Positions 5,866-63,866 of a stretch of DNA of 64,000 bases are shown here, one piece after another (position 1 is the stretch's first letter; the number at the start of each line of letters is the position of its first letter). Made by a program: the position numbers and the translations under genes. Below the pieces are notes generated by a model. The model was not told the DNA's origin. It did no database searches and saw only the letters and a program-made list of their open reading frames with translations. Origin of the DNA: an uncultured Candidatus Saccharibacteria bacterium (GTDB lineage Bacteria; Patescibacteriota; JABMPQ01; JAQVVF01); assembly GCA_964574655.1 (NCBI GenBank), contig CAZNOH010000001.1, forward strand, positions 201,852 to 265,851. The letters run 5' to 3'.

Positions 5866-6501
5866 ATGAAAAAAGTTATTTGTTTTGATTTGTGGAAAAC
5901 TTTGGCTTATGAGCCATATTCTTTAGAAGGATATTTTGACTTGGCAATTAAAAAATATCCCAAGAAGGTTACCAATGCAAAAATATTAAGGTTGATTGAT
6001 GAAATTCCGATGAAAAATAGTTTTACTTTGAAAAAATCAGTCAGATTAATACTAGCTGAATTGGGAATTTGCGATGAAAAGTTGGTCAAACAGATAGTGA
6101 AGGCTTGGCAATATTCTTGTGATAATGCCGAACTGTTTTTTGATGCGTTGCCAATTTTAAAAAAATTAAGAAAAAAATATTTGTTAGTTTTAATTACAAA
6201 TACTTCGAAATATGGTTGGAATAGTATAAGTCGGAAGTTCAATTTGAATCAATATTTTGATTTTGTTGCAAAATCTTTTGAGTTAGGTTATGTGAAACCA
6301 GAAACAGAAATTTTTGAGTTTATTGAGAATAAATTCAAAATTTATGAATCAAATGTATTAATGATTGGTGATTCCAGAGAAAAAGATATTTTGCCAGCTG
6401 AAAAAAGAGGTTGGAAAGTAATTAGAATAGACAGAACAATCAAGAGAAAGAATAAGAAAGTAATAAAGACTTTGTTGGATTTAGAAGGAATTACTTTTTG
6501 A
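5866..6501 (+). CDS. HAD-superfamily hydrolase (subfamily IA-like)
   Basis: N-terminal FDLWKTL (DxD-type motif I) and C-terminal MIGDSxxxD. Confidence 0.6.
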   Translation: MKKVICFDLWKTLAYEPYSLEGYFDLAIKKYPKKVTNAKILRLIDEIPMKNSFTLKKSVRLILAELGICDEKLVKQIVKAWQYSCDNAELFFDALPILKKLRKKYLLVLITNTSKYGWNSISRKFNLNQYFDFVAKSFELGYVKPETEIFEFIENKFKIYESNVLMIGDSREKDILPAEKRGWKVIRIDRTIKRKNKKVIKTLLDLEGITF

Positions 6502-6586
6502 TTTTTACTTTTGATAAGGAATTATTTTGGAAGTCTGTTTTGCACCTTAAAAATTAACAATCTCCAAAAGAGGAGAGGAGGGAGAG

Positions 6587-28322: not shown

Positions 28323-28452
28323 AAAGTCAAAAGTAAAAAGGTAAAAGTTGCAAGTAAAAAGTAAAAAATTATTAAATAAAAATTTCTAAATTGTTAGCAA
28401 TCAAGTTTAACAATTTAACAATTGAGCAATTTAACAATTCAAAAATAAAATT

Positions 28453-47930: not shown

Positions 47931-48692
47931 ATGCGAAATAAATTAATAGTTGGCAATTGGAAAATGAATTTAACTTTGGAAGAAGCTCGAAGGTTGACTT
48001 TGGATGTTAGGCAAGGATTAACAAATTTAAGTGAAAAAGTGGAAGTTGCAGTTTGTCCTTCCTTTGTTCACTTGGCTAATGTTCATTATCAATTGCCTTC
48101 TAGTATAAAATTAGGGGCTCAGGATGTGTTTTGGAAAGGAAATGGAGCTTATACTGGCGAGATTTCTTGTGATCAACTTTTGGATTTAGGCTGTTCTTAT
48201 GTAATTGTTGGTCATTCTGAAAGAAGAAAAAATCTGAAAGAAACAGATGTTATAATTAACGATAAAGTCTTAGAATGTTTGAGAAAAGGTTTGAAGCCAA
48301 TAATTTGTGTTGGAGAAACAAAAGACGAAAAAGAAAAAGGAATGACAGAGGAAAAAGTGACACAGCAAGTTGAAGTAGCTTTAGAAGGTGTGAAAAGTAA
48401 GGATGTCGTGAATGTAACAATAGCCTATGAACCAATCTGGGCAATAGGATCAGGAAATTCTGCTGAACCATCCGATGCTCAAGCTGTAATTTTTAGAATA
48501 AGAGATATTTTGAGAAATAATTATTCAGAAAAAGAATCAGAAATGATAAGGATTTTGTATGGGGGAAGTGTAGATCCGCAAAATGTTGCGTCTTTTGTTT
48601 TGGAAAAAGATATTGATGGCGTGTTGGTTGGTGGAGCGAGTATTAAAGCTAATGAATTTGTGGGAATTGTAAAACAGGTTTTAAAAATCTAA
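47931..48692 (+). CDS. tpiA: Triosephosphate isomerase
   Basis: VGNWKMN and IVGHSERR, with the AYEPIWAIGSG motif. Confidence 0.9.
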   Translation: MRNKLIVGNWKMNLTLEEARRLTLDVRQGLTNLSEKVEVAVCPSFVHLANVHYQLPSSIKLGAQDVFWKGNGAYTGEISCDQLLDLGCSYVIVGHSERRKNLKETDVIINDKVLECLRKGLKPIICVGETKDEKEKGMTEEKVTQQVEVALEGVKSKDVVNVTIAYEPIWAIGSGNSAEPSDAQAVIFRIRDILRNNYSEKESEMIRILYGGSVDPQNVASFVLEKDIDGVLVGGASIKANEFVGIVKQVLKI

Positions 48693-48838
48693 TGTCCAAG
48701 AAACAAGAAACAAACAAATCTCAAATTAAAATAACCAATTACCAAACTCGTCGTCGAAGGGTTTGATTATTGGTTATTGAATATTGGAATTTGTTTGTAT
48801 TTTGTATCTTGGTTATTAAATCTTATTTATAAATCATT

Positions 48839-49678
48839 ATGATAGTTTCATCACAAATCTTGTTAAAAAAGGCACAGCAAGGTCATTATGCAATTGGTGC
48901 TTTTAATACTTCTGATTTAGAAATTACAAAAGGAATTGTGGTAGCAGCTGAAGAGTTGAATGCGCCAATAATTTTGCAGACTTCTGAAGGCGAAATAAAG
49001 CATGCAGGATCTGAAGTATTTTTTGATTCAATGAAAATTTTTGCTGAGAAATCAAAAGCACAAATTAATTTAAATTTAGATCATGGAAAAAGTTTTGAAA
49101 TGTGCAAATGGGCAGTAGATAGCGGTTATAATTCTGTAATGATTGATGGATCTAGATTATTTTTAGATGAAAATATAAAACTAACAAAACAAGTCGTTGA
49201 TTACGCGCATTCTAAAAGCGTAGTTGTTGAAGGCGAGATTGGTCTTGTTCCTACTCCTAGCAAAGGCGAAGATGTTAGAATTTTAAAAGCTGATTCAGTT
49301 GAATGCAAAAAATTTATAGAAGAAACTGGTGTTGATTTTTTAGCAGTTGGCATTGGTAATGTTCATGGTGAAAATAAAGGTCAGCCAGTTTTGGATTTTG
49401 AAAGATTAAAAGAAATTAAAGAAGTCGTTGATGTGCCTTTAGTGTTACATGGCGGATCAGGTATTTCTGATGATGATATAAAAAAAGCTGTGTCTTTAGG
49501 AATTTGTAAGATTAATGTTAATACGGAATTGCGTCAGGCTTTTGCTAAGGCTTTGCGGGAAACTTTGGAAGATAAAGATGTAATCAAGCCTTATGATATT
49601 ATGGATCCGGTTGAGGATCGTATTAAAGAAGTTGTAATGAAAAAGATTGAAATTTTTGGAAGTAAAAATAAGGCGTAG
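48839..49678 (+). CDS. fba: Class II fructose/tagatose-bisphosphate aldolase
   Basis: GAFN, LDHG and VLHGGSG motifs. Confidence 0.85.
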   Translation: MIVSSQILLKKAQQGHYAIGAFNTSDLEITKGIVVAAEELNAPIILQTSEGEIKHAGSEVFFDSMKIFAEKSKAQINLNLDHGKSFEMCKWAVDSGYNSVMIDGSRLFLDENIKLTKQVVDYAHSKSVVVEGEIGLVPTPSKGEDVRILKADSVECKKFIEETGVDFLAVGIGNVHGENKGQPVLDFERLKEIKEVVDVPLVLHGGSGISDDDIKKAVSLGICKINVNTELRQAFAKALRETLEDKDVIKPYDIMDPVEDRIKEVVMKKIEIFGSKNKA

Positions 49679-50303: not shown

Positions 50304-51350
50304 ATGACCAAAACAAATTTTTTAGAATTGATAAATTTTTTACAAAAAAACCATAAAGTCTATGGGCCGGTTTTGGATAGGTCTGGCAGATTATTAGTAA
50401 AAGAAATTAAGGATCCAGAAAAAATAATTTTGAATGGCAGATTAACACATTATTCTTTTAAAAATTTATTTTTGCCATCTCATGAAACTTTATTTGATTA
50501 TGATCATCAAAAATTGAAAGAGCCAAATTTAAGCTATAAAAAACAAGCAATTGTTGGAATGACAATATCCGATTTGGAGGCTTTAGAATTATATGATCAA
50601 GTATTCGTAAAAGATCCATATTATCAGGAAAGACGAAGACAGACTTTAGTTATTGGATATAGTTTAGCGGGTAAAAAAAGTTTTTCTGAGGAATTAATTT
50701 ATGAACAGCAGTTTGAAGAAGATATTTTAGAACATGTGAAGTTTGATGTGTTTTGCGAATTGCGCGAATCTGGAACGAATGACACTAATAATTCTAGTGA
50801 TTTTTGTAAGGTTTTTGCTGGATCGGAGAATGGAATTAAGATTTTGGATGGATTTGGGTATAAGGATTATGAAAATATAAAATATGTTGGGCCAATTAGA
50901 GAACCCGCCTTTGCTTCCGAAGAGGCTGTGGTGGGCAAGGGAGGGTTGGATAAGACAATGATGGCGGTTTATAATAAAATGAGAAAAGGCTATGCCAAAA
51001 AAGTTTGGGAAGATATTGGAAAAAGGTGTATAGAGTGCGGACAATGTACTCTGGTTTGTCCAACTTGTTATTGTTTTAGAATTGATGATGAGCCAAGCTT
51101 GGATAGAGGAAAAGGCAAAAGAGTAAGATGCTGGGATGCTTGTATGTATCATGAATTTTCGGAAATTTCTGGAAAGACAAGATTATTAAAAAGTACTGAA
51201 CAGAGGATGTGGTTTTGGTTTTATCATAAATTTGTTAGAATTCCAGAAAAATATAAAATACCAGGATGTGTTAAATGTGGAAGATGCTCTCGTGTTTGTC
51301 CGGTTGATATTGATTTTATGAAGGTGCTACAAGACATTTTGAAGAGTTGA
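50304..51350 (+). CDS. Group-3 [NiFe] hydrogenase (sulfhydrogenase-type) beta subunit, a 2x[4Fe-4S] protein (AsrA-like)
   Basis: CIECGQCTLVCPTCYC and CVKCGRCSRVCP cluster motifs. Gene context with the gamma and NiFe subunit genes. Confidence 0.6.
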   Translation: MTKTNFLELINFLQKNHKVYGPVLDRSGRLLVKEIKDPEKIILNGRLTHYSFKNLFLPSHETLFDYDHQKLKEPNLSYKKQAIVGMTISDLEALELYDQVFVKDPYYQERRRQTLVIGYSLAGKKSFSEELIYEQQFEEDILEHVKFDVFCELRESGTNDTNNSSDFCKVFAGSENGIKILDGFGYKDYENIKYVGPIREPAFASEEAVVGKGGLDKTMMAVYNKMRKGYAKKVWEDIGKRCIECGQCTLVCPTCYCFRIDDEPSLDRGKGKRVRCWDACMYHEFSEISGKTRLLKSTEQRMWFWFYHKFVRIPEKYKIPGCVKCGRCSRVCPVDIDFMKVLQDILKS

Positions 51351-51467: not shown

Positions 51468-52310
51468 TTGATGTTTAATCCATATCAAACAAAATTGGTT
51501 GTAATAAAAAGAGTAATTAAAGAATCTTCTGATGTAAAAAGATTTGTTTTGGAATTTGAAAATAAGTTAGATAAAGAAAATTTTGATTTTATACCAGGAC
51601 AGTTTATTAAGGTTTCAATTCCAGGCTTATGCGATGCGCCGTTTACTTTTGGTTCTAGTCCAAAAAATAGAGATAATTTTGAAATTGCAGTTAGGGGAGT
51701 TGGAAATTTGACCAATTTTCTGAATAGAATGCAAATAGGACAAAAAATAGGAATAAGAGGACCGTATGGAAATGGTTTTCCAATGGATTTAATTAAGAAA
51801 AGAAATACTTTGATTGTGTCTGGCGGTTGTGGTTTTGTGCCTTTTAAATCGATGATAGAAGATTATCTAATTGACAAAAAAAGTTATAAATCTAAGTTCC
51901 AAATTTTTTACGGAGCGAGGTCTTTTGACGAGCTGTTGTTTAAAAGAGATTTTGAAAAATGGGAAAGTAGCGGTATAGATTTAAAGATAACTGTTGATAA
52001 GAATGATGAGAAGTGTGATATTTCTAAATATGGTTGCAATGTTGGTTTGGTAACTGAATTAATTAAAAATGAGGATTTGGTAGAAAAACCAGTTGTCTTG
52101 GTTTGTGGTCCGTCAATAATGGTAAAATTTGTAGTAATGGAATTAGATAAACTGTCTATCCCCCATTCTGATATTTTTGTTTCGTTAGAGGGAAGAATGG
52201 AATGCGGAATAGGAGTGTGTGAGCATTGCGCAATTGGTCCTTATTATGTTTGCAAAGATGGACCAGTGTTTAGTTGGGATAAGATTGAATGGATTCCAAA
52301 CATAGTTTGA
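51468..52310 (+). CDS. Hydrogenase gamma subunit: FAD/NAD(P)-binding oxidoreductase with a C-terminal [2Fe-2S] (AsrB/PyrK-like)
   Basis: FNR-like fold (RxYS-type motif, GGCG) and a C-terminal CGIGVCEHCAIG. Confidence 0.6.
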   Translation: MMFNPYQTKLVVIKRVIKESSDVKRFVLEFENKLDKENFDFIPGQFIKVSIPGLCDAPFTFGSSPKNRDNFEIAVRGVGNLTNFLNRMQIGQKIGIRGPYGNGFPMDLIKKRNTLIVSGGCGFVPFKSMIEDYLIDKKSYKSKFQIFYGARSFDELLFKRDFEKWESSGIDLKITVDKNDEKCDISKYGCNVGLVTELIKNEDLVEKPVVLVCGPSIMVKFVVMELDKLSIPHSDIFVSLEGRMECGIGVCEHCAIGPYYVCKDGPVFSWDKIEWIPNIV

Positions 52311-52411
52311 AGTAAAAATTAAAAAGTAAAAAGGTAAAGGTTGCAAGTAAAAAGTAAAAAGTTACGCGACGATTTTTTTACTTTTTAATTTTAACTTTTG
52401 ACTTTTTTAAC

Positions 52412-53695
52412 ATGTGTTTAACAATGCCTGGAAAAGTAAGTAAAATTAATGGAAACTTTGCGATAGTTGAGGGAAATTTTGGATTGAGAAGTGTCAATAT
52501 TATGGCATTAGGAAAAATTAAGATTGGTGATTGGCTTTTGGCGACAACTGGTTTAGCTGTTAAAAAAATTAATGAAAACGAGGCGCAGGAATTAATTGAT
52601 TTATTGAAAAGTCATGATGCGGTTGACAGCAACAAGATAGATAAAAAATTATTGAATGTTTTAGAAAATGCAAGAAAAAGGAATTTGAATAGAGACGAGA
52701 TTGTTTTTTTATTAAGTTTAAAAAAAAAGAAAGATATTGAGGCTTTGTTTTCAGAAGCTGATGTGATTAGAAAAAGTTATTTAAAAGATTTTATATGCAT
52801 TCATGGCATAATTGAATTTTCAAATTATTGTGAGAATAATTGTTCATATTGCGGATTGAGATTTGAAAATAAGAAATTAAAAAGATACAGAATGTCTTTT
52901 AAGGAGATTGTTGAAGTAATTGATGAAGCAGTAAATAAAATAGGTTATAAAATGTTGGTATTGCAGAGCGGAGTTGATAAAGGATGGAGCGATGCGAAAT
53001 TAATTGAATTAATAAAATTGATTAAAAAAAAGCATCGAGTTTTTATTCTGATAAGTATTGGTGAACGGAGTTTGGAATGTTATAGAAAGATGAAAAAAGC
53101 AGGAGCTGATGGAGTTTTGTTTAGATTTGAGACAGCAAATAAAGATCTTTATCACAAATTGCATTTATCTAAGACATTGAAAGGCAATTTTAAGAAGCGA
53201 TTAAAATTAATTGGTGAATTAAAGAAAATGGGTTATTATATTTCTTCAGGGTCAATGATTGGATTACCTGGTCAAACAATTGGTGATTTGGCAAACGATG
53301 TTTTAATGATGAAAAAGTTGAAAGTAGGAATGGTCTCAATGGGTCCCTTTGTCCCATGTAAAAATACTCCATTTGAGAAAGAAAAAAAAGCTGAAACGAT
53401 GTTGAGTTTGAAAATGATAGCTATTTGTCGTATTTTAATGAAAGAAGCAAGGATACCAATTACTTCTGCTTTAGAGACAATTGGAGGCGAAGAGATTAGG
53501 AAAAAAGGATTGAGCTGTGGTGCGAATTCATTGATGTTCAATCTAACACCGCAAAAATATAGAAAAGATTATAAAATTTACAATAACAAATTTTATGGGA
53601 GAAACAAGAAATTAGAGAGAGCAGCTTTATTTCAGAATGAAGATAGCTGGAGGATGATCGAGCAAGAGTTTAGAAAAAAAATAGATAAATTTTGA
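52412..53695 (+). CDS. Fusion protein: N-terminal HypC/HupF-type [NiFe]-hydrogenase chaperone domain (about 75 aa) plus a radical-SAM HydE [FeFe]-hydrogenase maturase
   Basis: Starts MCLTMPGKV..GDWLL..G.A..KINENEA (the HypC signature with Cys2). The rest aligns along its length with HydE: IIEFSNYCENNCSYCGLR, KRYRM, LQSG, ETAN, GSMIGLPGQT, MGPFVP, CGANS. Confidence 0.7.
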   Translation: MCLTMPGKVSKINGNFAIVEGNFGLRSVNIMALGKIKIGDWLLATTGLAVKKINENEAQELIDLLKSHDAVDSNKIDKKLLNVLENARKRNLNRDEIVFLLSLKKKKDIEALFSEADVIRKSYLKDFICIHGIIEFSNYCENNCSYCGLRFENKKLKRYRMSFKEIVEVIDEAVNKIGYKMLVLQSGVDKGWSDAKLIELIKLIKKKHRVFILISIGERSLECYRKMKKAGADGVLFRFETANKDLYHKLHLSKTLKGNFKKRLKLIGELKKMGYYISSGSMIGLPGQTIGDLANDVLMMKKLKVGMVSMGPFVPCKNTPFEKEKKAETMLSLKMIAICRILMKEARIPITSALETIGGEEIRKKGLSCGANSLMFNLTPQKYRKDYKIYNNKFYGRNKKLERAALFQNEDSWRMIEQEFRKKIDKF

Positions 53696-53699
53696 GTAT

Positions 53700-55070
53700 A
53701 TGCTAATAATAGATCAGAGAAAAATTAAAGAGTTTTTAGATAATAAGAAAAACGTAGATGAAGATGAGGCAAAGCAGATTGTTAAAAAAGCAAAAAAAAA
53801 GAAAGGTCTTAATTTAGCAGAAGTGGCGATTTTATTGAATGTTAATGATGAGAAGTTAATTGCTGAAATGTTTAAGGCGGCGATTGAAATAAAAAAAGCG
53901 ATATATGGGAATAGATTGGTTCTATTTGCGCCACTATATATTTCGAACTATTGCGTTAATGATTGTGAATATTGTAGCTTTCATATTCGAAACAAAGCGT
54001 CAAGAAAAAAATTAACCTTGGATGAGGTTAGAAAACAAGTTGAAATTTTGGAAGATATGGGCCACAAGAGACTGCTTTTAGAATTTGGCGAAGATCCCAT
54101 TAATAATCCAATTGATTATGTGGTTGATGTAATAAAAACAATATATAATGTAAAAAGGGGTAATGGATCGATTAGAAGAGTGAATATTAATATAGCAGCA
54201 ACAACCGTCGAAAATTATAAAAAAATAAAAGAAGCTGGAATTGGAACTTACCAGCTTTTTCAAGAAACTTATCATCAACCAACCTATAAAAAATTGCATT
54301 GCGGTCCTAAAGCTGACTATGAACGGCAAATTACGGCTTTAGATCGAGCTTTTCAAGCGGGAATTGATGATTTAGGAATCGGTGTTTTATTCGGACTTTA
54401 TGATTATAAATTTGAAGTTTTAAGTTTGCTAATGCATGCCCAATATCTGGAAAAGAAGAATGGCGTAGGGCCTCATACAATTTCCGTACCGAGATTTCAG
54501 TCTGCAATGACTGTTGATTATAAGTCTAGATATAAAGTTTCCGATAAAGCTTTTTTAAAACTAGTAGCGATCTTGAGAATGGCAGTCCCATATACGGGAA
54601 TAATAATGTCAACCAGGGAAACTCCAGAGATTCGTAGAAAAGCGTTTGAAATTGGCGTATCACAAACTAGTGCAGGATCAAAAACTGCGCCAGGAGGATA
54701 TCTGAAAAAATCAAAAACTAGTGATTTGCAACAATTTTCTTTGCATGATAAAAGGTCACTGGATGAAGTTGTTTGTGATATTTGCGGGCTTGGATATTTA
54801 CCAAGTTTTTGCACAGCATGTTATCGTGTCGGGCGGACAGGCGATCAATTTATGGAATATGCAAAATCAGGAAAAATTCAGAGATTTTGTCAACCTAACG
54901 CGATAATGACTTTAAAGGAATATTTAGTTGATTATGCATCAAAAGATACAAAGAAAGCAGGTGAAGAATTGATTAATAGTGAATTAAAAAAGATGGATGT
55001 GAAAAAAAGAGCTTTGTTTAAGAGAAAGCTAAAATTGATCGAACAAGGAAAGAGGGATATATATATTTAG
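53700..55070 (+). CDS. Radical-SAM HydG (tyrosine lyase producing CO/CN ligands), [FeFe]-hydrogenase maturase type
   Basis: N-terminal PLYISNYCVNDCEYC (CX3CX2C) and a C-terminal CTACYRVGRTGDQFMEYAKSGKIQRFC, which is an exact CX2CX22C auxiliary-cluster motif. That motif separates HydG from ThiH. Confidence 0.7.
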   Translation: MLIIDQRKIKEFLDNKKNVDEDEAKQIVKKAKKKKGLNLAEVAILLNVNDEKLIAEMFKAAIEIKKAIYGNRLVLFAPLYISNYCVNDCEYCSFHIRNKASRKKLTLDEVRKQVEILEDMGHKRLLLEFGEDPINNPIDYVVDVIKTIYNVKRGNGSIRRVNINIAATTVENYKKIKEAGIGTYQLFQETYHQPTYKKLHCGPKADYERQITALDRAFQAGIDDLGIGVLFGLYDYKFEVLSLLMHAQYLEKKNGVGPHTISVPRFQSAMTVDYKSRYKVSDKAFLKLVAILRMAVPYTGIIMSTRETPEIRRKAFEIGVSQTSAGSKTAPGGYLKKSKTSDLQQFSLHDKRSLDEVVCDICGLGYLPSFCTACYRVGRTGDQFMEYAKSGKIQRFCQPNAIMTLKEYLVDYASKDTKKAGEELINSELKKMDVKKRALFKRKLKLIEQGKRDIYI

Positions 55071-55191
55071 AATTCATTATTTGTAAAATGAAGACGAAAT
55101 TTAATGTCCAATCTAAGTAAAAAATAGCAATGTTTTTTATGATTTTGTAAATAAGCGTTCTTTTTAAATTTCAAGGTAAAGGAGGAGAAAG

Positions 55192-55866
55192 ATGAGCAGC
55201 AATGATGGTTTGATTGAAGCAGCAAGATTTTCGTGGAATTGTTGTCCAGAAAATAGAGTTCTTTGCGATGGATTATACGGCTTTGTTGGAGGAAATGGCG
55301 GGCATGATGTTGCATGGATTCGAGGTCAACTAAAAAGTCTTTATTCATATTTTTATTATCTGTTGATTGCTAGGCAAAATGGAATTTCTGATCCTTTTGA
55401 TTTGCGAGTTGTTCAGGCACATTGGATTGGCAATGATTTGTTGAGGGTTGTGAAAGCTAGCGATGTTAAAGAATTATTATCAGCTACTAAAGAATTGAGC
55501 GCATTGCCGAGAGAAAAAGAAACGATGATGAGGTGGTTATTGAGCAAGCTTGTAAAATTAGGATCTTATCCTCATCATAGTTTTTATGCAACTGTTTATG
55601 AAAAGTTGAATCCCGCACTTGTCCGTCAAGGAAAAAGATGTTTTATAGACTGCGGCAAAGTGTTGGAATTGGAAGACGATCATTTTCTTATCGAAGTCAA
55701 TGGAGTTACGAGAAAATGCGGTTATGGTTTTCTGAAAGGAAAGATTGAAGTTGGAGATTTGGTTTTTATCCATTTGAATGAGGGTTGCAGGGTTGCAACT
55801 TTAGATGAAAAAACAAAATTAGATGATTGGTTTGTTGCTACAGAATGTACATTAAGGTTGCTTTAA
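55192..55866 (+). CDS. Hypothetical hydrogenase-cluster protein with 9 Cys; the C-terminal part has a weak HypC-barrel-like pattern
   Basis: Strong SD aaaggaggagaaag. Position between hydG and the NiFe small-subunit gene. No P-loop, so it is not HydF. Confidence 0.4.
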   Translation: MSSNDGLIEAARFSWNCCPENRVLCDGLYGFVGGNGGHDVAWIRGQLKSLYSYFYYLLIARQNGISDPFDLRVVQAHWIGNDLLRVVKASDVKELLSATKELSALPREKETMMRWLLSKLVKLGSYPHHSFYATVYEKLNPALVRQGKRCFIDCGKVLELEDDHFLIEVNGVTRKCGYGFLKGKIEVGDLVFIHLNEGCRVATLDEKTKLDDWFVATECTLRLL

Positions 55867-55923: not shown

Positions 55924-56688
55924 ATGGAACAACAAAAATTAAAAGTAGCAATGGTTTCTTTGACTTCCTGCGAAGGATGTTATTTTAGCTTGCTTGATTT
56001 AGGAAATGAATTTTTAGAAATTGCTGACAAAATTGATTTAGTTAAATTTCGATTATTTGAAGAAAAAGAGCATTCTGAAAATGAAAAATATGATCTTGCG
56101 TTTGTGGAAGGCAGTCCGATTTCTAAAGAGAATTTTGATAAGTTGATTAATTTGAGATTGAGAACTAAAAAATTAATTATTTTGGGTGGATGTGCTCATA
56201 CTGGTGGAACATATGCAATGCGAAATCATACTGACAAAAAGAAAGCTTGTAAATATGTTTATCCTAAAACTAATAAAAAAGTTTTTAATCCAAAAATTTT
56301 AGAACTTTCTAAAGTTGTAAAAATTGACGGAATTATTCCAACTTGTCCGGTTAATCCTAGAGAATTTGTTAGATTTATGTCTTTTATCTTGAATAGTTTA
56401 ACGTTTAAAATTGTTGAAAGGCCAGTCTGTCATGAATGCCAATTAGCAGAGACTCCTTGTTTATTAAAAATGGGATTGCCTTGTTTTGGGCCAATGGCTC
56501 TTGGAGGTTGTGATGCGCCTTGTCCTCAAGCAGGAATGCCTTGTCAATTATGTCGTGGACCAATGAAAGAGATTGTTTGGGAAAATTTTGAAAAGAAAAT
56601 GAAAGAAATAATGGGTGCTGAAGTTTGGGAAAAAGATTATCATGAAATACTCGAGATTTTTAATGTGAAGGATAAAATTAATTGTTAA
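55924..56688 (+). CDS. [NiFe] hydrogenase small subunit, group 3 type (delta subunit; no Tat signal)
   Basis: N-terminal KVAMVSLTSCEGCYFSLLD, and more FeS Cys in the C-terminal half (CPVNPREF.., CHECQ, CFGPM..GGCDAPCP). Confidence 0.75.
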   Translation: MEQQKLKVAMVSLTSCEGCYFSLLDLGNEFLEIADKIDLVKFRLFEEKEHSENEKYDLAFVEGSPISKENFDKLINLRLRTKKLIILGGCAHTGGTYAMRNHTDKKKACKYVYPKTNKKVFNPKILELSKVVKIDGIIPTCPVNPREFVRFMSFILNSLTFKIVERPVCHECQLAETPCLLKMGLPCFGPMALGGCDAPCPQAGMPCQLCRGPMKEIVWENFEKKMKEIMGAEVWEKDYHEILEIFNVKDKINC

Positions 56689-56722: not shown

Positions 56723-57052
56723 ATGGAAATTAAACAAGAGATTAAAAAACCAGAAGCTGTTAAAATAATTGTTGAAGATAACGGTAAAATTGTTGGCAGA
56801 GCTTATTTATATTTGATTAATAATGATTTGCATAAAGAGCCTTATGGATTGTTGGAGGATGTTTTTGTTGAAGAAAATCAAAGAGGAAAAGGAACTGGTA
56901 CGAAATTAGTTCAGGCAGTAATTGATGAAGCTAAGAAAAGAGATTGTTATAAATTAATTGCAACTAGTAGGAAATCAAGAGAGCAAGTACACGAATGGTA
57001 TTTGAAATTTGGTTTTGAAGATTATGGTTGTGAATTTAGGATGGAGTTATAA
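56723..57052 (+). CDS. GNAT-family N-acetyltransferase (small, 109 aa)
   Basis: Q/RxxGxG/A motif in NQRGKGTGTKLV. Confidence 0.5.
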   Translation: MEIKQEIKKPEAVKIIVEDNGKIVGRAYLYLINNDLHKEPYGLLEDVFVEENQRGKGTGTKLVQAVIDEAKKRDCYKLIATSRKSREQVHEWYLKFGFEDYGCEFRMEL

Positions 57053-57082: not shown

Positions 57083-58387
57083 ATGAAAAAAATAATAAAA
57101 ATAAATCATCTAGCTAAAATGGAAGGGCATGCTTCGTTTGAAGGCAAGATTTTGGCAGGAAGAATTTTAGAAGCGCATATTATTACAGAAGAAGGCGCAA
57201 GATTAATTGAGGGAACATTGGTAGGCAGACATTATTCTGAAGCGTCGACGATTACTTCCAGAATTTGTGGGATCTGTCCAATTGTTCATCATCTAACAGC
57301 TGTGAAAGCTTTGGAAGAATGTTTTGATGTTAAAGTCAGCTCTGAAACTATAATGCTTAGAAAAGTTTTGGAATTAGCGCAAATAATTCATAGCCATACT
57401 TTGCATCTTTTCTTTTTGTCTTTACCTGATTTTTTGAATTATGATGATACAAAAAAGATGGCAGGTAGATATCCTAATGAAGCGCAGATGGCAATTGATA
57501 TTCGGAAATGGGCGACTGATTTATGTTTAGTAATTGGTGGTAGAATTACACATCCTTTGACAAATATGGTAGGCGGATTTAGGAAATGGCCCGAAGAAGA
57601 AAATTTAGAAAAATTTTTAGATGGTTCTGGTGATATTTTGGAGATGGCATTAAAAATCGCCCAATTATTTAGAGATTTAGATTATCCAAAGTTTGATAAT
57701 CTAGGAAACTTTATTGCGTTATCAAATGATACTGAATATGCAATCTATGAAGGCGAAGTTAAAATTTGGGAGACAAAGAAAAATTTAGCTAAAAAAATAT
57801 TTGGCAAGCAAATGAAAGGAATAAGTGCAACGAAATTTATTAAGAAAATTAAAGAAATAGAATTGCAAAATGAATTGGTAAAAAGAGTGAAGTATAATGG
57901 AAAGTCTTTTTTTTGTGGAGCATTAGCAAGGATTAATATCAATAAATATCTGTTGAATGAAGAGTCTTCAAAATTTTTAGAAACAACAAATATTGATTTT
58001 CCAACAGATAATACTTTTTATAATGTTTTAGCTCAAGCTGTTGAGGTTATTCATTGTGTTGAAGAAATCAGAAATTTATTGAGAGAATTAAAGAAGATAA
58101 ATTGGTTGAAGGCTAAAAATACGAGTTTTAAAATTAAGGCTGGCAAAGGAGTGGCTGCAATTGAGGCGCCGAGAGGGACTTTGTATCATTATTATGAAAC
58201 TGATAAAGATGGATATATTAAAAACTGTAATATAATTACGCCAACAGCGCAGTTTTTGGCAAAATTAGAAGATGATTTGAGTGTGTTTTTATCTGATGTT
58301 AAAAATTTGCCGGATTTGGAAAGAAAAAATAAAATAAAAATGATGATAAGGGCGTTTGATCCGTGTATTAGTTGCGCTACGCACTAA
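57083..58387 (+). CDS. [NiFe] hydrogenase large subunit (alpha), ending at the Ni-site His with no C-terminal extension
   Basis: N-terminal RICGICPIVHH (RxCGxC) and C-terminal DPCISCATH followed directly by a stop codon. Confidence 0.85.
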   Translation: MKKIIKINHLAKMEGHASFEGKILAGRILEAHIITEEGARLIEGTLVGRHYSEASTITSRICGICPIVHHLTAVKALEECFDVKVSSETIMLRKVLELAQIIHSHTLHLFFLSLPDFLNYDDTKKMAGRYPNEAQMAIDIRKWATDLCLVIGGRITHPLTNMVGGFRKWPEEENLEKFLDGSGDILEMALKIAQLFRDLDYPKFDNLGNFIALSNDTEYAIYEGEVKIWETKKNLAKKIFGKQMKGISATKFIKKIKEIELQNELVKRVKYNGKSFFCGALARININKYLLNEESSKFLETTNIDFPTDNTFYNVLAQAVEVIHCVEEIRNLLRELKKINWLKAKNTSFKIKAGKGVAAIEAPRGTLYHYYETDKDGYIKNCNIITPTAQFLAKLEDDLSVFLSDVKNLPDLERKNKIKMMIRAFDPCISCATH

Positions 58388-58419: not shown

Positions 58420-58851
58420 ATGAAAAAACAAAATAGAAAAAAAATAAACAAGGATGTTACAGTCAGAAGTTTATCAGAAAAAATTGATAAGCGTTTTGAG
58501 CAAGTTGATAAGCGTTTTGATAAGATGATGAAAGTAATGGATAATAGATTTGGTGAGTTGTATAGTTTTTTACAAAAACACATGGTAACAAAAGAGGAAT
58601 TTAATGAAAGATTGTTGAAGTTGGAAAACAGAATTGAGAATATTGAACAAAATTATTCAACGAAGGATGATTTATTGAAAGTAAAAGATGAACTTTTGAC
58701 ATTAATGGATAAAATTATTAATGATTATAAAAAAGATAAACAAGAACATGCTTTTTTCAGTTATCATCTGGAAAGAATTGCAAAATTAGAATATCGGATT
58801 GATAAAATAGAGGGTAAGAAAGTTAAAGACTTAAAATTTACAAATGCATGA
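58420..58851 (+). CDS. Hypothetical coiled-coil protein
   Basis: 143 aa with heptad-like charged repeats. Confidence 0.35.
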   Translation: MKKQNRKKINKDVTVRSLSEKIDKRFEQVDKRFDKMMKVMDNRFGELYSFLQKHMVTKEEFNERLLKLENRIENIEQNYSTKDDLLKVKDELLTLMDKIINDYKKDKQEHAFFSYHLERIAKLEYRIDKIEGKKVKDLKFTNA

Positions 58852-59101
58852 CTTTCATGCGGCGGACAATTTATTAAAGATGGCACTTGAACATGCAAAG
58901 AAAAATAAACTGAGAAAAGTTGACAAAATTAAAATTGAATTAGGAAAATTTGTTGAGCATGGGCAAGAAATATTAGCAGATAATTTGAAATTTAATATTA
59001 AAATGTTGGCTAAAGGTACGATTGCTAAAAATGCAGAAATTGTTATTATTGAGAAACAAGGTGAAAGAGGCTATGAATTAGTAGAGATTGAAGGAGAATA
59101 G
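58844..59101 (+). CDS. Minimal HypA-like nickel metallochaperone lacking the zinc-finger domain
   Basis: MHDFHAADNLLKMALEHAKK parallels the HypA MHE-Ni site plus helix. The C-terminal YELVEIEGE parallels the HypA end. There are no Cys at all (HypA normally has CxxC..CxxC). Confidence 0.45.
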   Translation: MHDFHAADNLLKMALEHAKKNKLRKVDKIKIELGKFVEHGQEILADNLKFNIKMLAKGTIAKNAEIVIIEKQGERGYELVEIEGE

Positions 59102-59147: not shown

Positions 59148-60311
59148 ATGAATAAAAAAACAATCAAAGATATTGATGTCAAAAATAAAACAGTTTTAGT
59201 CAGAGCTGATTTTAATGTACCAATTAAAGATGGTAAGATTCTTGACGATTTTAAAATTAAAAAAAGCCTTGATACTATAAATTATTTGATTAAAAATAAT
59301 GCGAAAATTGTTTTGATGTCGCATTTGGGAAAGCCAAAAGGAAAGGTTGTTGAAGATTTAAGATTAGATTCGATTGCGAAAAGATTAAGTGAAATGTTAG
59401 AAAAAAAAGTTGAAAAATTAAATGACTGTATAGGGCAGGAAGTTAATGATAAGGTTAAGCAGGCGAAATTAGGTGATGTGATATTGTTAGAGAATGTTCG
59501 TTTTCATCCTGAAGAAGAGAAAAATGATCCAGAATTTGCTAAGAAATTGGCGAGTTTGGGAGAAATTTTTTGTGAAGATGGGTTTGGATCAGTACATCGC
59601 GCTCATGCATCTGTTTCAGGAATTGCTAAATTTTTGTCAGCTGTTGCAGGATTATTGTTGGAAAAAGAAGTTGATGTTTTGACAGAAGTTTTAGAGAAGC
59701 CAGATCATCCATATTTAGTGATTTTAGGTGGAGCAAAGATTTCAACAAAATTAAATTTGATTAATAAGCTAGCAAAACAGGCGGACAAGCTTTTGGTTGC
59801 AGGTGCATTGTCTAATACTATTTTTCTGGCGAATGGCGTGAATGTTGGCGGATCAATCGTGGAAAAAGAAATGCTAGAGCAAATTAAAAATACAGTTTTA
59901 AAAAATACTAACATTGATATTCCGATTGATGTAATTGTCGGAAAAGATAATGGCGATGGGACGAGAACTGTTGATATTGGGAATGGAATAAGCAGCGATG
60001 AATTTATTTATGATATTGGACCGAAAACAATTGATTTGTTTAAGAGAAAAATTGATAAAGCGAGATTAGTTGTTTGGAATGGGCCAATGGGAAAATTTGA
60101 GAATAAAAAATTTGCAAAAGGTACTGAGAATATTGCAAAAGAATTGGTAAGAGTTAAAAAAGCAGTTGTTGGCGGAGGAGAGACTTCAATGGCAATTCGA
60201 AAATTAGGCTTAGAAGATAAAATTTATTTTTTATCTACTGGTGGGGGAGCAATGCTGGAGTTTTTAGAGGGAAAACTAATGCCGGGAATAGAGTGCTTAT
60301 TAGATAAATAA
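59148..60311 (+). CDS. pgk: Phosphoglycerate kinase
   Basis: RADFNVP, and GGGA in the C-terminal domain. Confidence 0.95.
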   Translation: MNKKTIKDIDVKNKTVLVRADFNVPIKDGKILDDFKIKKSLDTINYLIKNNAKIVLMSHLGKPKGKVVEDLRLDSIAKRLSEMLEKKVEKLNDCIGQEVNDKVKQAKLGDVILLENVRFHPEEEKNDPEFAKKLASLGEIFCEDGFGSVHRAHASVSGIAKFLSAVAGLLLEKEVDVLTEVLEKPDHPYLVILGGAKISTKLNLINKLAKQADKLLVAGALSNTIFLANGVNVGGSIVEKEMLEQIKNTVLKNTNIDIPIDVIVGKDNGDGTRTVDIGNGISSDEFIYDIGPKTIDLFKRKIDKARLVVWNGPMGKFENKKFAKGTENIAKELVRVKKAVVGGGETSMAIRKLGLEDKIYFLSTGGGAMLEFLEGKLMPGIECLLDK

Positions 60312-60325
60312 AATTAATAATATTT

Positions 60326-61567
60326 ATGAAAATAATTAAGATTAGAGCCCGAGAAATTCTTGACTCAAGAGGTGAGCCAACTGTGGAAGTGCGTGTTGAT
60401 TTAGATGGCGGTAAATTTGGCATTGCTAGAGTTCCTTCTGGTGCTTCAACAGGAAAATATGAAGTATTAGAATTGAGAGATAAAGATAAAAAAAGATATG
60501 GCGGGAAAGGAGTGTTGAGAGCTTGCAAAAATGTTAATGATATTATTTCGCAAAGGCTGGTTGGATTATATGCAGATAAGCAAGAAAAAATTGATCGGAC
60601 TTTGATTGCATTAGATGGGACAAAAAATAAATCAAAATTAGGAGCAAATGCGATTCTTGGCGTGTCATTAGCATGTTGTGTAGCAGCAGCTAATTCTAAA
60701 GAAATCGAACTATATCAGTATATCGGCGAAATTTTTGGCAATGATAATTTTGTAATGCCGCAAGCATATTTTAATATTATCAATGGTGGAAAACATGCTG
60801 ACTCTGGATTAGATGTCCAGGAATTTATGATTGTGCCAAAAGCAGTTAATTTTTATGAAAAAGTGAGAGTTGGTTCAGAAATTTTTCATGCTTTGAAAGA
60901 TATTTTGCAAAGAAGAGAATATTCAATTAGTGTTGGTGACGAGGGTGGTTTTGCACCGAAATTAGATAGCAATGAACATGCAATTGAAACTATTTTGAAG
61001 GCAATCGAAGAGGCAGGATATAAGCCAGGAGCTGATGTAAATATTGCTTTAGATGTTGCTGCTTCTTCTTTCTATAGTAAGGAGAAGGGATATTGTTTGA
61101 ATTCTGGCAAGTGCATTGAATCAGATCATTTAATAGCGATGTTTTCGGATTGGATTAGCAAATATCCAATAAAAAGCATTGAAGATCCTCTCGCTCAAGA
61201 TGATTGGGAAGGTTTTAAAAAAATTACTGAAAAGTTAGGAGATAAAATTCAAATAATTGGTGATGATTTGTTTGTAACAAACATTGAAAGAGTAAAAAAA
61301 GGTATTGTTGAAAATTGCGCAAATTCTGTTTTGATAAAACCAAATCAAATTGGTACTTTGACGGAAACTTTTGAATGTATAAAATTAGCAAAATCAAAAG
61401 GCTATGCAACAATGGTTTCGCATCGTTCTGGCGAGACAACTGATACTTTTATTGCTGATCTTTGTGTTGGAACTAATGCCGCACAGATCAAGTCTGGTTC
61501 CTTGTCTCGTGGTGAAAGAGTTTGCAAATATAATCGGTTGATGGAGATTGAGGAGAAGCTTAAATAA
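60326..61567 (+). CDS. eno: Enolase
   Basis: ILDSRGEPTVEV, SHRSGETTD and IKPNQIGT motifs. Confidence 0.95.
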   Translation: MKIIKIRAREILDSRGEPTVEVRVDLDGGKFGIARVPSGASTGKYEVLELRDKDKKRYGGKGVLRACKNVNDIISQRLVGLYADKQEKIDRTLIALDGTKNKSKLGANAILGVSLACCVAAANSKEIELYQYIGEIFGNDNFVMPQAYFNIINGGKHADSGLDVQEFMIVPKAVNFYEKVRVGSEIFHALKDILQRREYSISVGDEGGFAPKLDSNEHAIETILKAIEEAGYKPGADVNIALDVAASSFYSKEKGYCLNSGKCIESDHLIAMFSDWISKYPIKSIEDPLAQDDWEGFKKITEKLGDKIQIIGDDLFVTNIERVKKGIVENCANSVLIKPNQIGTLTETFECIKLAKSKGYATMVSHRSGETTDTFIADLCVGTNAAQIKSGSLSRGERVCKYNRLMEIEEKLK

Positions 61568-61691
61568 TTTTTAATTTATAATTTCAAATTTTAAATAAAT
61601 TTTAAAATATTAATTTCAAAAATGTTTTTTGACGTTTGTTTTAAAATTATATTATTTAAAATTCAATTAAAATTTAAAATTTAAAATTTTT

Positions 61692-63281
61692 ATGATATAT
61701 AAACAAGCAGTTTTAATCATTTTGGATGGATTTGGTATTGCTCCACCAAGCAAGGGAAATTGTGTTATGCAAGCAAAGATGCCATATTATAATGAGTTAC
61801 TAAAAAATTATACTCATACAACAATTCAAGCTTCTGGCGAGGAAGTTGGTTTGCCATGGAGGGATATGGGAAATTCAGAAGTTGGTCATGGCAATTTGGG
61901 AGCAGGCAGAATTTCTTATCAAAGCTTGCCATTAATAAATACAGCAATTTTAAATAAGACTTTTTTTAAAAATGAAGCTTTAATGGGTGCGATTGAGCAT
62001 GTTAAAAAAAATAAGAGTAGTTTACATCTGATGGGTTTGGTCAGCTCTGGGGGTATTCATGCGCATATTGAACACTTGTTTGCGTTATTGAAATTAGCTA
62101 AGCAGAATAAAATAAAAAAAGTATATATTCATTGTTTTATGGATGGTAGAGATATGCCAAAGGATTCAGGCATAGATATGATTACAAAAATTGAAGAAGA
62201 AACGAGCGGATGGTTTTCAGTTGGCAAAATTGCAACAATGAGCGGTAGATATTATGTAATGGATCGTGATGATAATTGGGACAGAGTTGAAAAAGCTTAT
62301 AATGCGATGGTCGGAGCGTCGGAGCGTCGGAGCGTCGGAGCGTCGGAACCAAAGTTTTTTGCGAATCCAATTACGGCAATTAAAGATTCTTATGCTCACA
62401 AAGTTTATGATGAGCAGGTGGAGCCAGTTGTGATTGGAACAAAAGAAAAACCAGTAGCTAAGATTTCTAAAGGCGATTCAATAATATTTTTTAATTATAG
62501 AACTGATCGAGCCAGGCAAATTACTGAAGCTTTTGTTAGCGATGATTTTAAAGGTTTTAAACGTGAAAAAATAGAAGATTTATTTTTTGTTTGTTTTACA
62601 GAATATAAAAAAGGATTATGCAAAAATATTGCCTTTCAGCAGAAAGAAACTCCAAATGGTTTGTCAGAAACAATTAGCAAAAATAATTTAAAACAATTTC
62701 ATGTTGCAGAGACAGAAAAGTTTGCGCATGTGACTTTCTTTTTTAATTGCGGACAAGAAGAACCTTTTGCAGGAGAAATTCACAAAGTTGTAGCCTCGCC
62801 AAAAGTAGAATCTTATGACCAGAAACCAGAAATGTCGGCGCAAGGTGTAACTGAAGAAGTAATGAAAGCAATAAAAGAAAAATATAATTTTATCTTAATT
62901 AATTTCGCTAATCCAGATATGGTCGGGCATACCGGAAATATTTCTGCAACAATAAAGGGTTTGGATTTTGTTGATTCTTGTTTAAAAAAAATTGTGACAG
63001 AAGTTTTGAATAATAATGGCGTTGTAGTTTTGACAGCTGATCATGGTAATTGCGAGGAAAAAATTAATCTGCAAACTAGTAAATCAGAGAAACAACATAC
63101 TGCAAATCCAGTGCCTTTGATTTTAATTGGCAAAGGATTGGAACGAAAATCTGATAATACTGATTTGAGCTTGGAATCACCGACTGGAGCTTTAGCTGAT
63201 GTGGCGCCAACAATTTTAGCATTAATGGGAATTGAAAAACCGGTAGAGATGATAGGAATTGATTTAACTAAAGCGATATAA
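61692..63281 (+). CDS. gpmI: 2,3-bisphosphoglycerate-independent phosphoglycerate mutase (iPGM) carrying an internal GASERRSV repeat insertion
   Basis: iPGM motifs (LILDGFG, MGNSEVGH, ADHGN) and the full 529-aa length. Confidence 0.9.
   Translation: MIYKQAVLIILDGFGIAPPSKGNCVMQAKMPYYNELLKNYTHTTIQASGEEVGLPWRDMGNSEVGHGNLGAGRISYQSLPLINTAILNKTFFKNEALMGAIEHVKKNKSSLHLMGLVSSGGIHAHIEHLFALLKLAKQNKIKKVYIHCFMDGRDMPKDSGIDMITKIEEETSGWFSVGKIATMSGRYYVMDRDDNWDRVEKAYNAMVGASERRSVGASEPKFFANPITAIKDSYAHKVYDEQVEPVVIGTKEKPVAKISKGDSIIFFNYRTDRARQITEAFVSDDFKGFKREKIEDLFFVCFTEYKKGLCKNIAFQQKETPNGLSETISKNNLKQFHVAETEKFAHVTFFFNCGQEEPFAGEIHKVVASPKVESYDQKPEMSAQGVTEEVMKAIKEKYNFILINFANPDMVGHTGNISATIKGLDFVDSCLKKIVTEVLNNNGVVVLTADHGNCEEKINLQTSKSEKQHTANPVPLILIGKGLERKSDNTDLSLESPTGALADVAPTILALMGIEKPVEMIGIDLTKAI
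62311..62347 (+). repeat. Coding microsatellite: GC-rich 8-mer (tcggagcg) repeated 4.6 times
   Basis: tcggagcg x4 + tcgga, read directly from the sequence. It encodes GASERRSVGASERRSVGASE. Confidence 0.85.
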
Positions 63282-63299
63282 AGATATTAATTTTTAATT

Positions 63300-63866
63300 A
63301 TGAAAATAAAAATTGAAGTCAGTGCTCGACATATTCATTTGAGCCAAGAACATTTAGATCAACTTTTTGGAAAAGATCATAAATTAACAAAAAAGTTAGG
63401 TTTGTCGCAAGAAGGTGAATTTGCCTGTGAAGAAACTTTGAAAGTTGTGGGACCAAAAGGGAAAATTGAAAATGTCAGGATTATCGGACCTGTTCGATCA
63501 AAAACTCAAATAGAAGTTTCGAAAACAGATGGTTTTATGCTAGGCAATATTCCTCCTTTGTGTGTTTCTGGTGATGTTGTTGGTTCTGCACCTGTAAAAT
63601 TAGTTGGTCCTAACGGCTCCGTTGATTTATTGGAAGGCATGATCATTGTGATGAGACATGTTCATATATCTATTGGTAAAGCCAAAGAATTAAATTTAGA
63701 AAATGGGCAAAGAGTTTCTGTTTCTTGTCTAGGAGATCGAGGATTATTATTTGATAATGTTGTTGTTAGAGTTAAAGAAAATTTTCAATTCTTTTTTCAG
63801 ATTGATACTGATGAAGCAAATGCGGCTGGTGTTGAAAATGGAGATGTCGGGGAGTTAGTTGTTTAA
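63300..63866 (+). CDS. PduL-type phosphate acyl(acetyl/propanoyl)transferase
   Basis: Two internal repeats, each with an xRHxHxS motif (SARHIHLS and MRHVHISIG). The length of about 190 aa is typical of PduL. Confidence 0.65.
   Translation: MKIKIEVSARHIHLSQEHLDQLFGKDHKLTKKLGLSQEGEFACEETLKVVGPKGKIENVRIIGPVRSKTQIEVSKTDGFMLGNIPPLCVSGDVVGSAPVKLVGPNGSVDLLEGMIIVMRHVHISIGKAKELNLENGQRVSVSCLGDRGLLFDNVVVRVKENFQFFFQIDTDEANAAGVENGDVGELVV

Follow-up and report, generated by a model that had tools for sequence, protein, structure and literature searches.

A conserved fusion of a HypC-family domain with a HydE-family radical SAM domain, encoded beside hydG in a [NiFe] hydrogenase operon of an uncultured Patescibacteriota bacterium

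Contig CAZNOH010000001.1 of an uncultured Candidatus Saccharibacteria bacterium (Patescibacteriota, assembly GCA_964574655.1) encodes a protein in which a HypC-family domain, a type known from [NiFe] hydrogenase maturation, is joined to a HydE-family domain, a type known from [FeFe] hydrogenase maturation. The gene was analysed in a window of 64,000 nucleotides (nt), which is the whole stretch at positions 201,852 to 265,851 of this 654-kb contig, and coordinates are given as positions in the window. The open reading frame (ORF) is located at 52412..53695 on the + strand, starts with ATG, and codes for 427 amino acids (aa). By both sequence and fold the product is a HypC-family domain plus a HydE-family domain, and it was confirmed as a real, conserved fusion and a genuine two-domain maturase. 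In the NCBI annotation the protein is an ordinary HydE. As its HypC domain is without the equivalent of His51 and its HydE domain is without R54, T134, and R155 of Thermotoga maritima HydE (TmHydE), it is filed here as a distinct subfamily. The presence of the gene, together with hydG, inside [NiFe] hydrogenase operons suggests an undescribed route to iron bearing CO and CN ligands. The reading to which we lean, with moderate confidence, is that the [NiFe] large subunit receives its CO/CN-ligated iron from HydG and the fusion, by way of Cys2 of the HypC domain and without HydF.

The HypC domain (residues 1-65) matches the complete profile of PF01455 HupF_HypC (1-65/65) with 56.5 bits and an E-value of 3.1e-15 (gathering score 28.5), and NCBIfam TIGR00074 with 51.6 bits (cut-off 48). 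The HydE domain (residues 88-395) matches TIGR03956 with 280.7 bits and an E-value of 1.6e-83 (cut-off 254.6). The sequence-only reading of this DNA, which had proposed HypC fused to the N-terminus of HydE, is therefore borne out by the cut-offs of all three hidden Markov models. Rival radical S-adenosylmethionine (SAM) models are below their own cut-offs, with 166 of 348 bits for PylB, 93 of 225 for BioB, and 89 of 321 for HmdB. Among sequences of solved structures, TmHydE residues 5-310 align with fusion residues 82-394 (E 1.7e-73), and Thermococcus kodakarensis HypC (2z1c) aligns with residues 1-64 (E 1.2e-9); sequence matches of the HypC domain in PDB are 2z1c, 3vyr, and 2ot2.

An AlphaFold model of the fusion, computed with 110 homologues in the alignment, has a predicted local distance difference test (pLDDT) score of 91.7 and a predicted template modelling score of 0.91. 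It consists of five strands (residues 6-53) and a helix (residues 55-64) with pLDDT of 82-93, i.e., the oligonucleotide/oligosaccharide-binding (OB) barrel with its C-terminal helix, and then a (beta-alpha)8 barrel. When this model was used in Foldseek, the ten best matches were all TmHydE, with 40-43% identity and a template modelling (TM) score of 0.85-0.90 on target. The PF01455 match ends at residue 65 and the TmHydE alignment starts at residue 82; the roughly 16 residues that separate them form a linker. The pLDDT is about 81 at residues 61-70 and 91 at residues 71-80. The N-terminal helices of HydE are kept, as residues 82-133 of the fusion correspond to TmHydE residues 5-56. HypC was therefore added onto a complete HydE, and the earlier view that it replaces the N-terminal segment of HydE, with the core beginning right after the linker, has to be given up. 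The parts of the gene are as follows.

52412..52606, + strand: HypC domain of the fusion, residues 1-65, with the Cys2 codon at 52415-52417.
52607..52654, + strand: linker, residues 66-81.
52655..53695, + strand: remodelled but complete HydE radical SAM domain, residues 82-427 (by TIGR03956, the TmHydE alignment, and Foldseek), with codons for C129 at 52796-52798, H131 at 52802-52804, the CX3CX2C motif at 52829-52852, G234 at 53111-53113, M307 at 53330-53332, and M375 at 53534-53536.

The same protein, identical in sequence, is present on two independent Logan assemblies in addition to the 654-kb contig. The best 120 homologues in a collection of 5.8 billion proteins all combine PF01455 with PF04055, are 417-509 aa long, and show identity down to 46%; all of the 120 nearest homologues of TmHydE have the radical SAM domain alone. 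Relatives of the fusion were found in 328 GTDB species genomes in a scan of one genome per GTDB species. Most of them are Patescibacteria (Falkow-, Moran-, Buchanan-, Berkel-, Peregrini-, and Jorgensenbacteria), so the same fusion does occur in related genomes of the candidate phyla radiation (CPR), as had been proposed for checking. It is not confined to CPR, because it is also carried by Planctomycetota, by Desulfobacterota-like metagenome-assembled genomes (MAGs), and by a DPANN archaeon. The carriers outside Patescibacteria are anammox Brocadiales (Kuenenia, Wunengus), other Planctomycetota, groundwater 'Deltaproteobacteria', Syntrophales, and Thermodesulfobacteriota, and the one archaeal carrier is a member of Aenigmatarchaeota.

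In the family alignment, conserved residues span the HypC/HydE junction, the HypC domain is always N-terminal, and the N-terminus is always (M)CL(T/S)xP. Fusion ORF calls of 445-501 aa are an artefact of taking the first start codon, as all of them have an internal MCLTIP start. In one related locus (L070, JBAZNP010000001.1, about 10001-10153), the HypC domain starts with ICLTIP and has ATC in place of ATG; either the start codon is non-canonical or the base was misread in sequencing. In a Falkowbacteria MAG (L064, CAVZGV010000006.1, 10001-12646), HypC, HydE, and HydG are coded in one frame of 881 aa, and this triple fusion was recovered again in a representative protein library (P0129). The same library searched with the HypC domain gave mainly standalone HypCs, a few fusion clusters at 50% identity, and one DUF6390-type match. 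Full-text literature searches found no HypC-HydE fusion, no HydE or HydG in NiFe operons or in CPR, and no DUF6390, so that the earlier remark on an undescribed fusion stands. A paper on CPR hydrogenases describes group-3b operons, with the fusion and hydG genes unmentioned (PMC10811913). Information on hyp genes is absent from the anammox genome papers.

In the HypC domain, M1, C2, L3, and P6 are invariant in all 110 fused sequences, and the MC(L/I)xxP motif is kept. This Met-Cys start allows the domain to present a free cysteine at its N-terminus, the residue with which HypC proteins hold iron. There are exactly five invariant cysteines in the family: Cys2, Cys129, and the three ligands of the SAM cluster.

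For the HydE domain, 110 fused and 120 canonical sequences were aligned and compared for clade-specific invariants; the canonical set is biased, as it consists of TmHydE relatives with at least 56% identity, among them Clostridium, Thermoanaerobacter, Sporomusa, Carboxydothermus, and Desulfovirgula. The CX3CX2C motif (C140, C144, C147) is invariant in the fused family. Q107, R159, E161, and T269 (TmHydE numbering) are kept in both groups, and so are M224 and M291, which correspond to M307 (109/110) and M375 (110/110) in the fusions. M224 and M291 bind and guide the Fe(CO)2CN fragment in HydE (PMC10114646). Four positions with a different residue in the fused family are these.

TmHydE R54: Arg in 120/120 canonical sequences, His131 in 110/110 fused sequences.
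TmHydE T134: Thr in 120/120 canonical sequences, Phe in 99/110 fused sequences.
TmHydE R155: Arg in 120/120 canonical sequences, Gly234 in 110/110 fused sequences.
TmHydE H52: His in 89, Tyr in 23, and Phe in 8 of 120 canonical sequences, Cys129 in 110/110 fused sequences.

Furthermore, A132, H160, G226, and P292 of TmHydE are replaced in the fusions by Phe, Phe, Ser, and Phe, respectively. R54, T134, R155, and T269 contact CN ligands in the cavity where dimerisation to a two-Fe(I) product was proposed (PMC11826987). The S3 region is the exit towards HydF, and its mutation impairs maturation (PMC10114646). As the catalytic and upper residues are kept and the lower-cavity residues are swapped, the substrate (upper) side is canonical and the product (lower) side has been rebuilt around a potential ligand pair, Cys129/His131. 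The C-terminal cysteine triad (C311, C319, C322) is present in 111-113 of 120 canonical and in 0/110 fused sequences, in agreement with the earlier statement that it is missing here. A C-terminal auxiliary cluster is found only in a subset of HydE proteins and is not family-defining.

ORFs were called in 82 related loci and labelled with the proteins of the window, with a neighbourhood of up to ±10 kb per locus; 80 of the loci have the fusion. The NiFe large subunit is present in 44 of these 80, and in 19 of the 30 that are flanked by 8 kb or more on each side. HydG is encoded in 49 of the 80 loci; of the 71 whose sequence extends far enough, 42 have it immediately downstream of the fusion. 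The usual order in the loci is beta, gamma, fusion, HydG, small subunit, large subunit, and short HypA. A link between the NiFe and FeFe machineries, as claimed from the window alone, is thus upheld and made stronger by the gene neighbourhood, in that a NiFe-type chaperone domain is joined to an FeFe-type maturase and located in a NiFe operon beside hydG, with NiFe subunits in 44/80 loci. Full-length hypA and hypB are directly beside the module in seven non-CPR loci: they adjoin both the fusion and hydG in L019, L027, L049, L050, and L054, the fusion alone in L020 (a short contig), and hydG alone in L038. The hydrogenase of L054, an anammox locus, is group-1/2-like and not 3b, so that the association extends to NiFe hydrogenases at large and is not limited to group 3b.

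In the window, all genes between 50304 and 59101 are on the + strand, in the order beta, gamma, HypC-HydE, HydG, DUF6390-HypC', small subunit, GNAT, large subunit, 143-aa ORF, and HypA. The elements around the fusion gene are listed here.

50304..51350, + strand: beta-like subunit with a 4Fe-4S dicluster (ShyB/HydB/AsrA-like); PF17179 Fer4_22, 101 bits.
51468..52310, + strand: gamma-like subunit, FAD/NAD-binding, 2Fe-2S; PF00970, PF00175, PF10418.
52305..52402, + strand: AT-rich heptad-repeat hairpin, intergenic between the gamma and fusion genes, at the left edge of the hypC-hydE/hydG cassette.
53700..55070, + strand: HydG, canonical, the tyrosine lyase from which the Fe-CO/CN synthon comes; TIGR03955, 612.7 bits (cut-off 312).
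55192..55866, + strand: DUF6390 helical domain plus C-terminal HypC-like domain, with C150 and H194 corresponding to HypC C2 and H51.
55924..56688, + strand: [NiFe] small (delta) subunit; PF01058, 67 bits; best NCBIfam models sulfhydrogenase HydD and ShyD.
56723..57052, + strand: GNAT acetyltransferase, between the small and large subunit genes; PF00583, 66 bits.
57083..58387, + strand: [NiFe] large (alpha) subunit, group-3b-like; PF00374, 117 bits; best NCBIfam models ShyA and HydA of sulfhydrogenases.
58420-58851, + strand: ORF of 143 aa, Lys/Glu-rich, with no family match.
58844..59101, + strand: truncated HypA of 85 aa, starting with MHD; PF01155, 36.9 bits (gathering 28.9), profile positions 1-69/112.

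The gene hydG starts 4 nt 3' of the fusion gene; its product scores 595.6 bits against T. italicus HydG (4wcx) and has an intact C-terminal CX2CX22C. The best NCBIfam models of all four hydrogenase subunits (alpha, beta, gamma, delta) are those of sulfhydrogenases (Shy/Hyd), all below the equivalog cut-offs. For the beta-like subunit the best ones are AsrA, ShyB, and HydB, each under its cut-off, and for the gamma-like subunit NF006220 (cytochrome-c3 hydrogenase gamma, 210 bits, cut-off 395) and ShyC (189 bits, cut-off 600) are both below. Homologues of these two subunits are present in 31 and 30 related loci, respectively. From these matches the operon is predicted to encode a group-3b [NiFe] hydrogenase. 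The large subunit has the motifs RICGICPIVHH and DPCISCATH, the latter directly before the stop codon, and both CxxC ligand motifs are thus present.

As the large subunit in the window ends at DPCISCATH, there is no C-terminal extension to cleave. The motif DPCxxCxxH is the exact C-terminus in 36 of 45 linked large subunits (the window and 44 loci). Eight large subunits have extensions of 7-14 residues, mostly in L011, L018, L030, and L040, where a gene of 123-128 aa shows weak similarity to the HycI protease, its 19 bits falling short of the gathering score. The related L053 and L055 are without this gene, and L042 and L027 have a full HycI-type gene instead.

Short HypA proteins (84-95 aa, MHD or MHE start) comprise only the nickel-binding N-domain, and the zinc-finger domain is missing. 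They are encoded just 3' of the large subunit in at least 15 Patescibacteria-type loci, and no HypB was seen in these CPR loci. The 143-aa ORF, probably a coiled-coil protein, overlaps the start of hypA by 8 nt, and non-homologous small ORFs are located at the same spot in sister operons. No convincing match to a solved structure was found for the N-terminal helical domain of the DUF6390 protein. The position of the GNAT gene is conserved in L085, L087, L089, and L090, and a version of 157 aa follows the large subunit in L040 and L053.

The hairpin at 52305-52402 is long and perfect, with an RNA folding energy of -27.8 kcal/mol (z -4.3). Heptads of the type AAGTAAAAAG are over-represented, with 10 matches against 0.25 expected. 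AAGTAAA-type heptads are also found at 28317-28368, after a 702-aa ORF ending at 28322, and at 6494-6510. It is probably an element specific to this genome, either a terminator between genes or a repeat. A promoter and terminator scan of the AT-rich window was uninformative, with 59 promoter-like sites against 45 expected. Genes of glycolysis flank the operon, namely TIM and FBA at 47931-49678, and PGK, enolase, iPGM, and PTAC phosphotransacylase at 59148-63866. This synteny of glycolysis and hydrogenase genes is kept across many Patescibacteria loci and fits a role in fermentative disposal of reducing equivalents.

Genes for other maturation proteins were searched for by tblastn with Escherichia coli Hyp queries in 1.34 Mb, comprising the window and 87 loci. 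HypA was matched in 10 loci, HypB in 7, HypC in 30, and HycI in 4, and HypD, HypE, and HypF in none. Matches down to about 27% identity were obtained, so the search is sensitive enough for distant relatives. In the window, HypD, HypE, HypF, HydF, and HydA were not found by tblastn or motif search, and motifs of the H-cluster (HydA) and of HydF were absent from the window and from the 82 loci. ORFs of 700-830 aa and the clusters c15, c16, and c28 from Berkelbacteria-type loci were tried as HypF, HypD, or HypE and rejected; they are a PilB-like ATPase, pilus/secretion proteins, sensor kinases, and the like.

In the reading to which we lean, the fusion and the canonical HydG would be an [FeFe]-maturation module put to work for a [NiFe] hydrogenase. 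HydG would make [Fe(Cys)(CO)2(CN)] from tyrosine, cysteine, and iron, as is established for canonical HydG, and the HydE domain would adenosylate the cysteine sulfur and remove the carbon backbone, as is established for TmHydE, the residues for which are conserved here. It is known that HydG makes [Fe(Cys)(CO)2(CN)] and that HydE processes it by radical attack on sulfur (PMC10114646). The suggestion that the HydE substrate is iron-bound is correct, but it had been established by that work and is not revealed by the fusion. The Fe-CO/CN fragment could then pass the two methionines into the lower cavity lined by Cys129 and His131 and be trapped there as a mononuclear species. The Cys2 thiolate of the HypC domain would take it over in cis, replacing HydF, and carry it to the apo large subunit. 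HypC is known to hold Fe(CN)2CO via Cys2 and to deliver it to the large subunit (PMC12134894). Finally, the truncated HypA would add nickel, and C-terminal cleavage would be unneeded because no residues follow the last ligand motif of the large subunit. On this reading, the module would be the provider of CO, and of at least one CN, which elsewhere come from HypD, HypE, and HypF together with an unknown anaerobic source of CO. HydF would be dispensed with, and possibly also HypD, HypE, and HypF. The idea that the HypC domain stands in for HydF, raised from the window sequence, fits the absence of HydF motifs nearby and the rebuilt exit cavity; the hand-over to Cys2 itself is our conjecture.

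Several observations weigh against delivery of iron by HydG and the fusion. No hydrogenase is encoded within 10 kb in eleven of the 30 fully flanked loci, and about nine Buchananbacteria-type loci have no adjacent HydG. HypD, HypE, HypF, HydF, or an [FeFe] hydrogenase may be encoded elsewhere in the genomes. The product of HydG carries (CO)2(CN) and the NiFe site (CO)(CN)2, so the ligand counts do not match. The bias of the canonical HydE set also limits the comparison of the lower cavity. The equivalent of His51 (VLVHVGFA segment of E. coli HypC) is missing, as position 45, which was set by by-eye alignment with E. coli HypC, is Thr, Ile, or Ala and never His (0/110); 11 of the 110 fused sequences have a His one position before it. 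Canonical HypC keeps His51, which matters for the iron bound by HypCD. The description of the domain as a textbook HypC is therefore right in profile, Cys2, and OB fold, and wrong at this histidine. The last of these observations is the variation of the operon in the syntenic clade, in which the frame FBA, beta, gamma, slot, small subunit, GNAT, large subunit, HypA, and PGK is occupied in three ways.

Slot in the window: HypC-HydE, HydG, and DUF6390.
Slot in L089: HypC-HydE and HydG alone, with the fusion 84% identical.
Slot in L085, L086, L087, L090, and L091: plain HypC of 71-94 aa and DUF6390; hydE and hydG are absent from the neighbourhood.

On both sides of the slot, the DNA of the window matches that of L085 with about 80% identity. 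Similarity stops at about 52297, and the window has 2.86 kb (52297-55157) in place of 0.28 kb in L085 (7684-7965). This could be a clean exchange of modules, or the module could be not essential. The sister operons with plain hypC either have hydEG elsewhere in the genome or do not require them.

The alternative that survives best, which we judge unlikely, is that the module supplies part of the ligands, most plausibly CO, alongside HypD, HypE, and HypF encoded elsewhere, and that the HypC domain docks HypD as usual. It draws on the unresolved anaerobic source of CO (PMC12134894), it would ease the mismatch of ligands if HypE and HypF give cyanide, and it agrees with nine loci that have an extra standalone HypC beside the fusion and with the sister operons without hydEG, in which the hydrogenase is encoded although the operon lacks the module. 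However, HypD, HypE, and HypF are absent from the 1.34 Mb even where hypA and hypB adjoin the module, and the His51 equivalent is lost in all 110 fused sequences. A source contig of only 654 kb would also, as CPR genomes go, probably leave little room for a second pathway. The nine standalone HypCs (72-89 aa) are located directly upstream of the fusion in L039, L052, L056, L057, L061, L069, L077, L078, and L079, and these organisms thus have two HypC-type modules side by side. The copies of L052 and L075, the only two that were read, keep the His51-type histidine.

It is quite improbable that the fusion and HydG build the H-cluster for an [FeFe] hydrogenase elsewhere in the genome, the HypC-like domain replacing HydF or acting as a tether and the position among NiFe genes reflecting co-regulation of hydrogen metabolism. 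The fully canonical HydG (612.7 bits, and 595.6 bits to 4wcx), the canonical upper pocket of the HydE domain, and the 11 fully flanked loci with no NiFe gene within 10 kb would suit such a function, and incomplete sets of maturases are reported from Archaea and others (PMC11216029). Nevertheless, neither a HydA nor a HydF motif is present in the window or the 82 loci, NiFe subunits are encoded in 44/80 loci with hypA and hypB contiguous with the module in several, HypC is a NiFe-specific chaperone family, and none of the residues proposed for the di-iron product (R54, T134, R155) is retained.

It is hardly probable that the HydE-like domain drifted to another radical SAM reaction that does not act on Fe-CO/CN, e.g., modification of the large subunit or of a HypC-bound intermediate. 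Such a drift would be in line with a TIGR03956 score barely above the cut-off (280.7 against 254.6), with replacement of three residues invariant in canonical HydE, and with the loci that have no adjacent HydG. On the other hand, the domain is 40-43% identical to TmHydE, the SAM cluster, Q107, R159, E161, M224, M291, and T269 are conserved, and HydG is directly downstream in 42/71 loci and fused in frame in L064. An artefact of assembly or annotation, with a chimeric contig or a lost stop codon joining two genes, is refuted by the identical protein on independent assemblies, the fusion in 120/120 nearest homologues, the relatives in 328 species genomes, and the conserved residues across the junction; no point was found in its favour, and the chimeric join that had been proposed as a check is excluded.

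Compared with known systems, the HydE domain resembles TmHydE (PDB 3CIW, 7O1O) in the radical SAM (beta-alpha)8 barrel, 40-43% identity, the CX3CX2C motif, M224/M291, Q107/R159/E161/T269, and the pairing with HydG. Unlike TmHydE, the fusion has the N-terminal HypC domain, His/Phe/Gly in place of R54/T134/R155, and Cys at H52, and it has no auxiliary cysteine triad. In contrast to HydE systems, it is encoded in NiFe operons, and no HydF or HydA was found nearby. The HypC domain is similar to HypC/HybG/HupF proteins in its full-length profile match, MCLxxP motif, OB barrel with helix, and coding together with NiFe structural genes and HypA. It differs in being attached covalently to an enzyme and in the missing His51 equivalent, and HypD, the usual partner of HypC, was not found in the neighbourhoods searched. 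Its likeness to HydF is in the proposed role, which would be to receive organometallic iron at the exit of HydE and to deliver it to the apo-hydrogenase. In sequence and fold it has no relation to HydF, a GTPase with a [4Fe-4S] site, as it offers an OB fold with a single thiolate in cis. In NifB-NifX fusions (PMC10114646) a radical SAM metallocofactor enzyme is likewise joined covalently to the carrier of its labile product, but the cofactor, the families, and the domain order are different. What the module would share with the HypCDEF pathway is the end use, in which iron with CO and CN ligands sits on HypC Cys2 until it is inserted into the NiFe large subunit. HypCDEF obtains cyanide from carbamoyl phosphate via HypF and HypE on HypCD, and the anaerobic source of CO is unknown (PMC12134894), whereas here the ligands would come from tyrosine via HydG.

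A review from 2025 states that all [NiFe] hydrogenases are thought to need HypA-F, and it calls the source of the CO ligand under anoxia "the most pressing" open question, with HydG and radical SAM enzymes unmentioned (PMC12134894). We tentatively consider it possible that a second, HypDEF-independent route to the NiFe iron exists in Patescibacteria, anammox bacteria, and some other anaerobes, in which both CO and CN would come from tyrosine via HydG, the HydE subfamily with its rebuilt cavity (Cys129/His131 in place of Arg54/Arg155) would release a mononuclear Fe-CO/CN unit and not a di-iron precursor, and the HypC domain would insert it directly into the large subunit. If there is no [FeFe] hydrogenase in these genomes, FeFe-type maturases would have been recruited to NiFe maturation and would not be a bridge between the two machineries.

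The combination of a NiFe operon, HypC-HydE, and HydG with no HypDEF nearby offers a testable alternative, namely tyrosine-derived CO and CN on a HypC thiolate. The swap of Arg/Thr/Arg for Cys/His/Gly gives specific targets for mutation and a natural contrast for the debate on a mono- or di-iron product of HydE. The slot of the syntenic clade is a natural cassette swap usable for comparative genomics, and a ligand module of two genes might make NiFe hydrogenases easier to produce in heterologous hosts. Should the module do no more than assist a conventional Hyp pathway, the fusion would nevertheless physically connect the two maturation systems for the first time. If the second route is true, the origin of CO under anaerobic conditions would be answered for these lineages, and the two hydrogenase maturation systems would be interchangeable at the level of the iron synthon.

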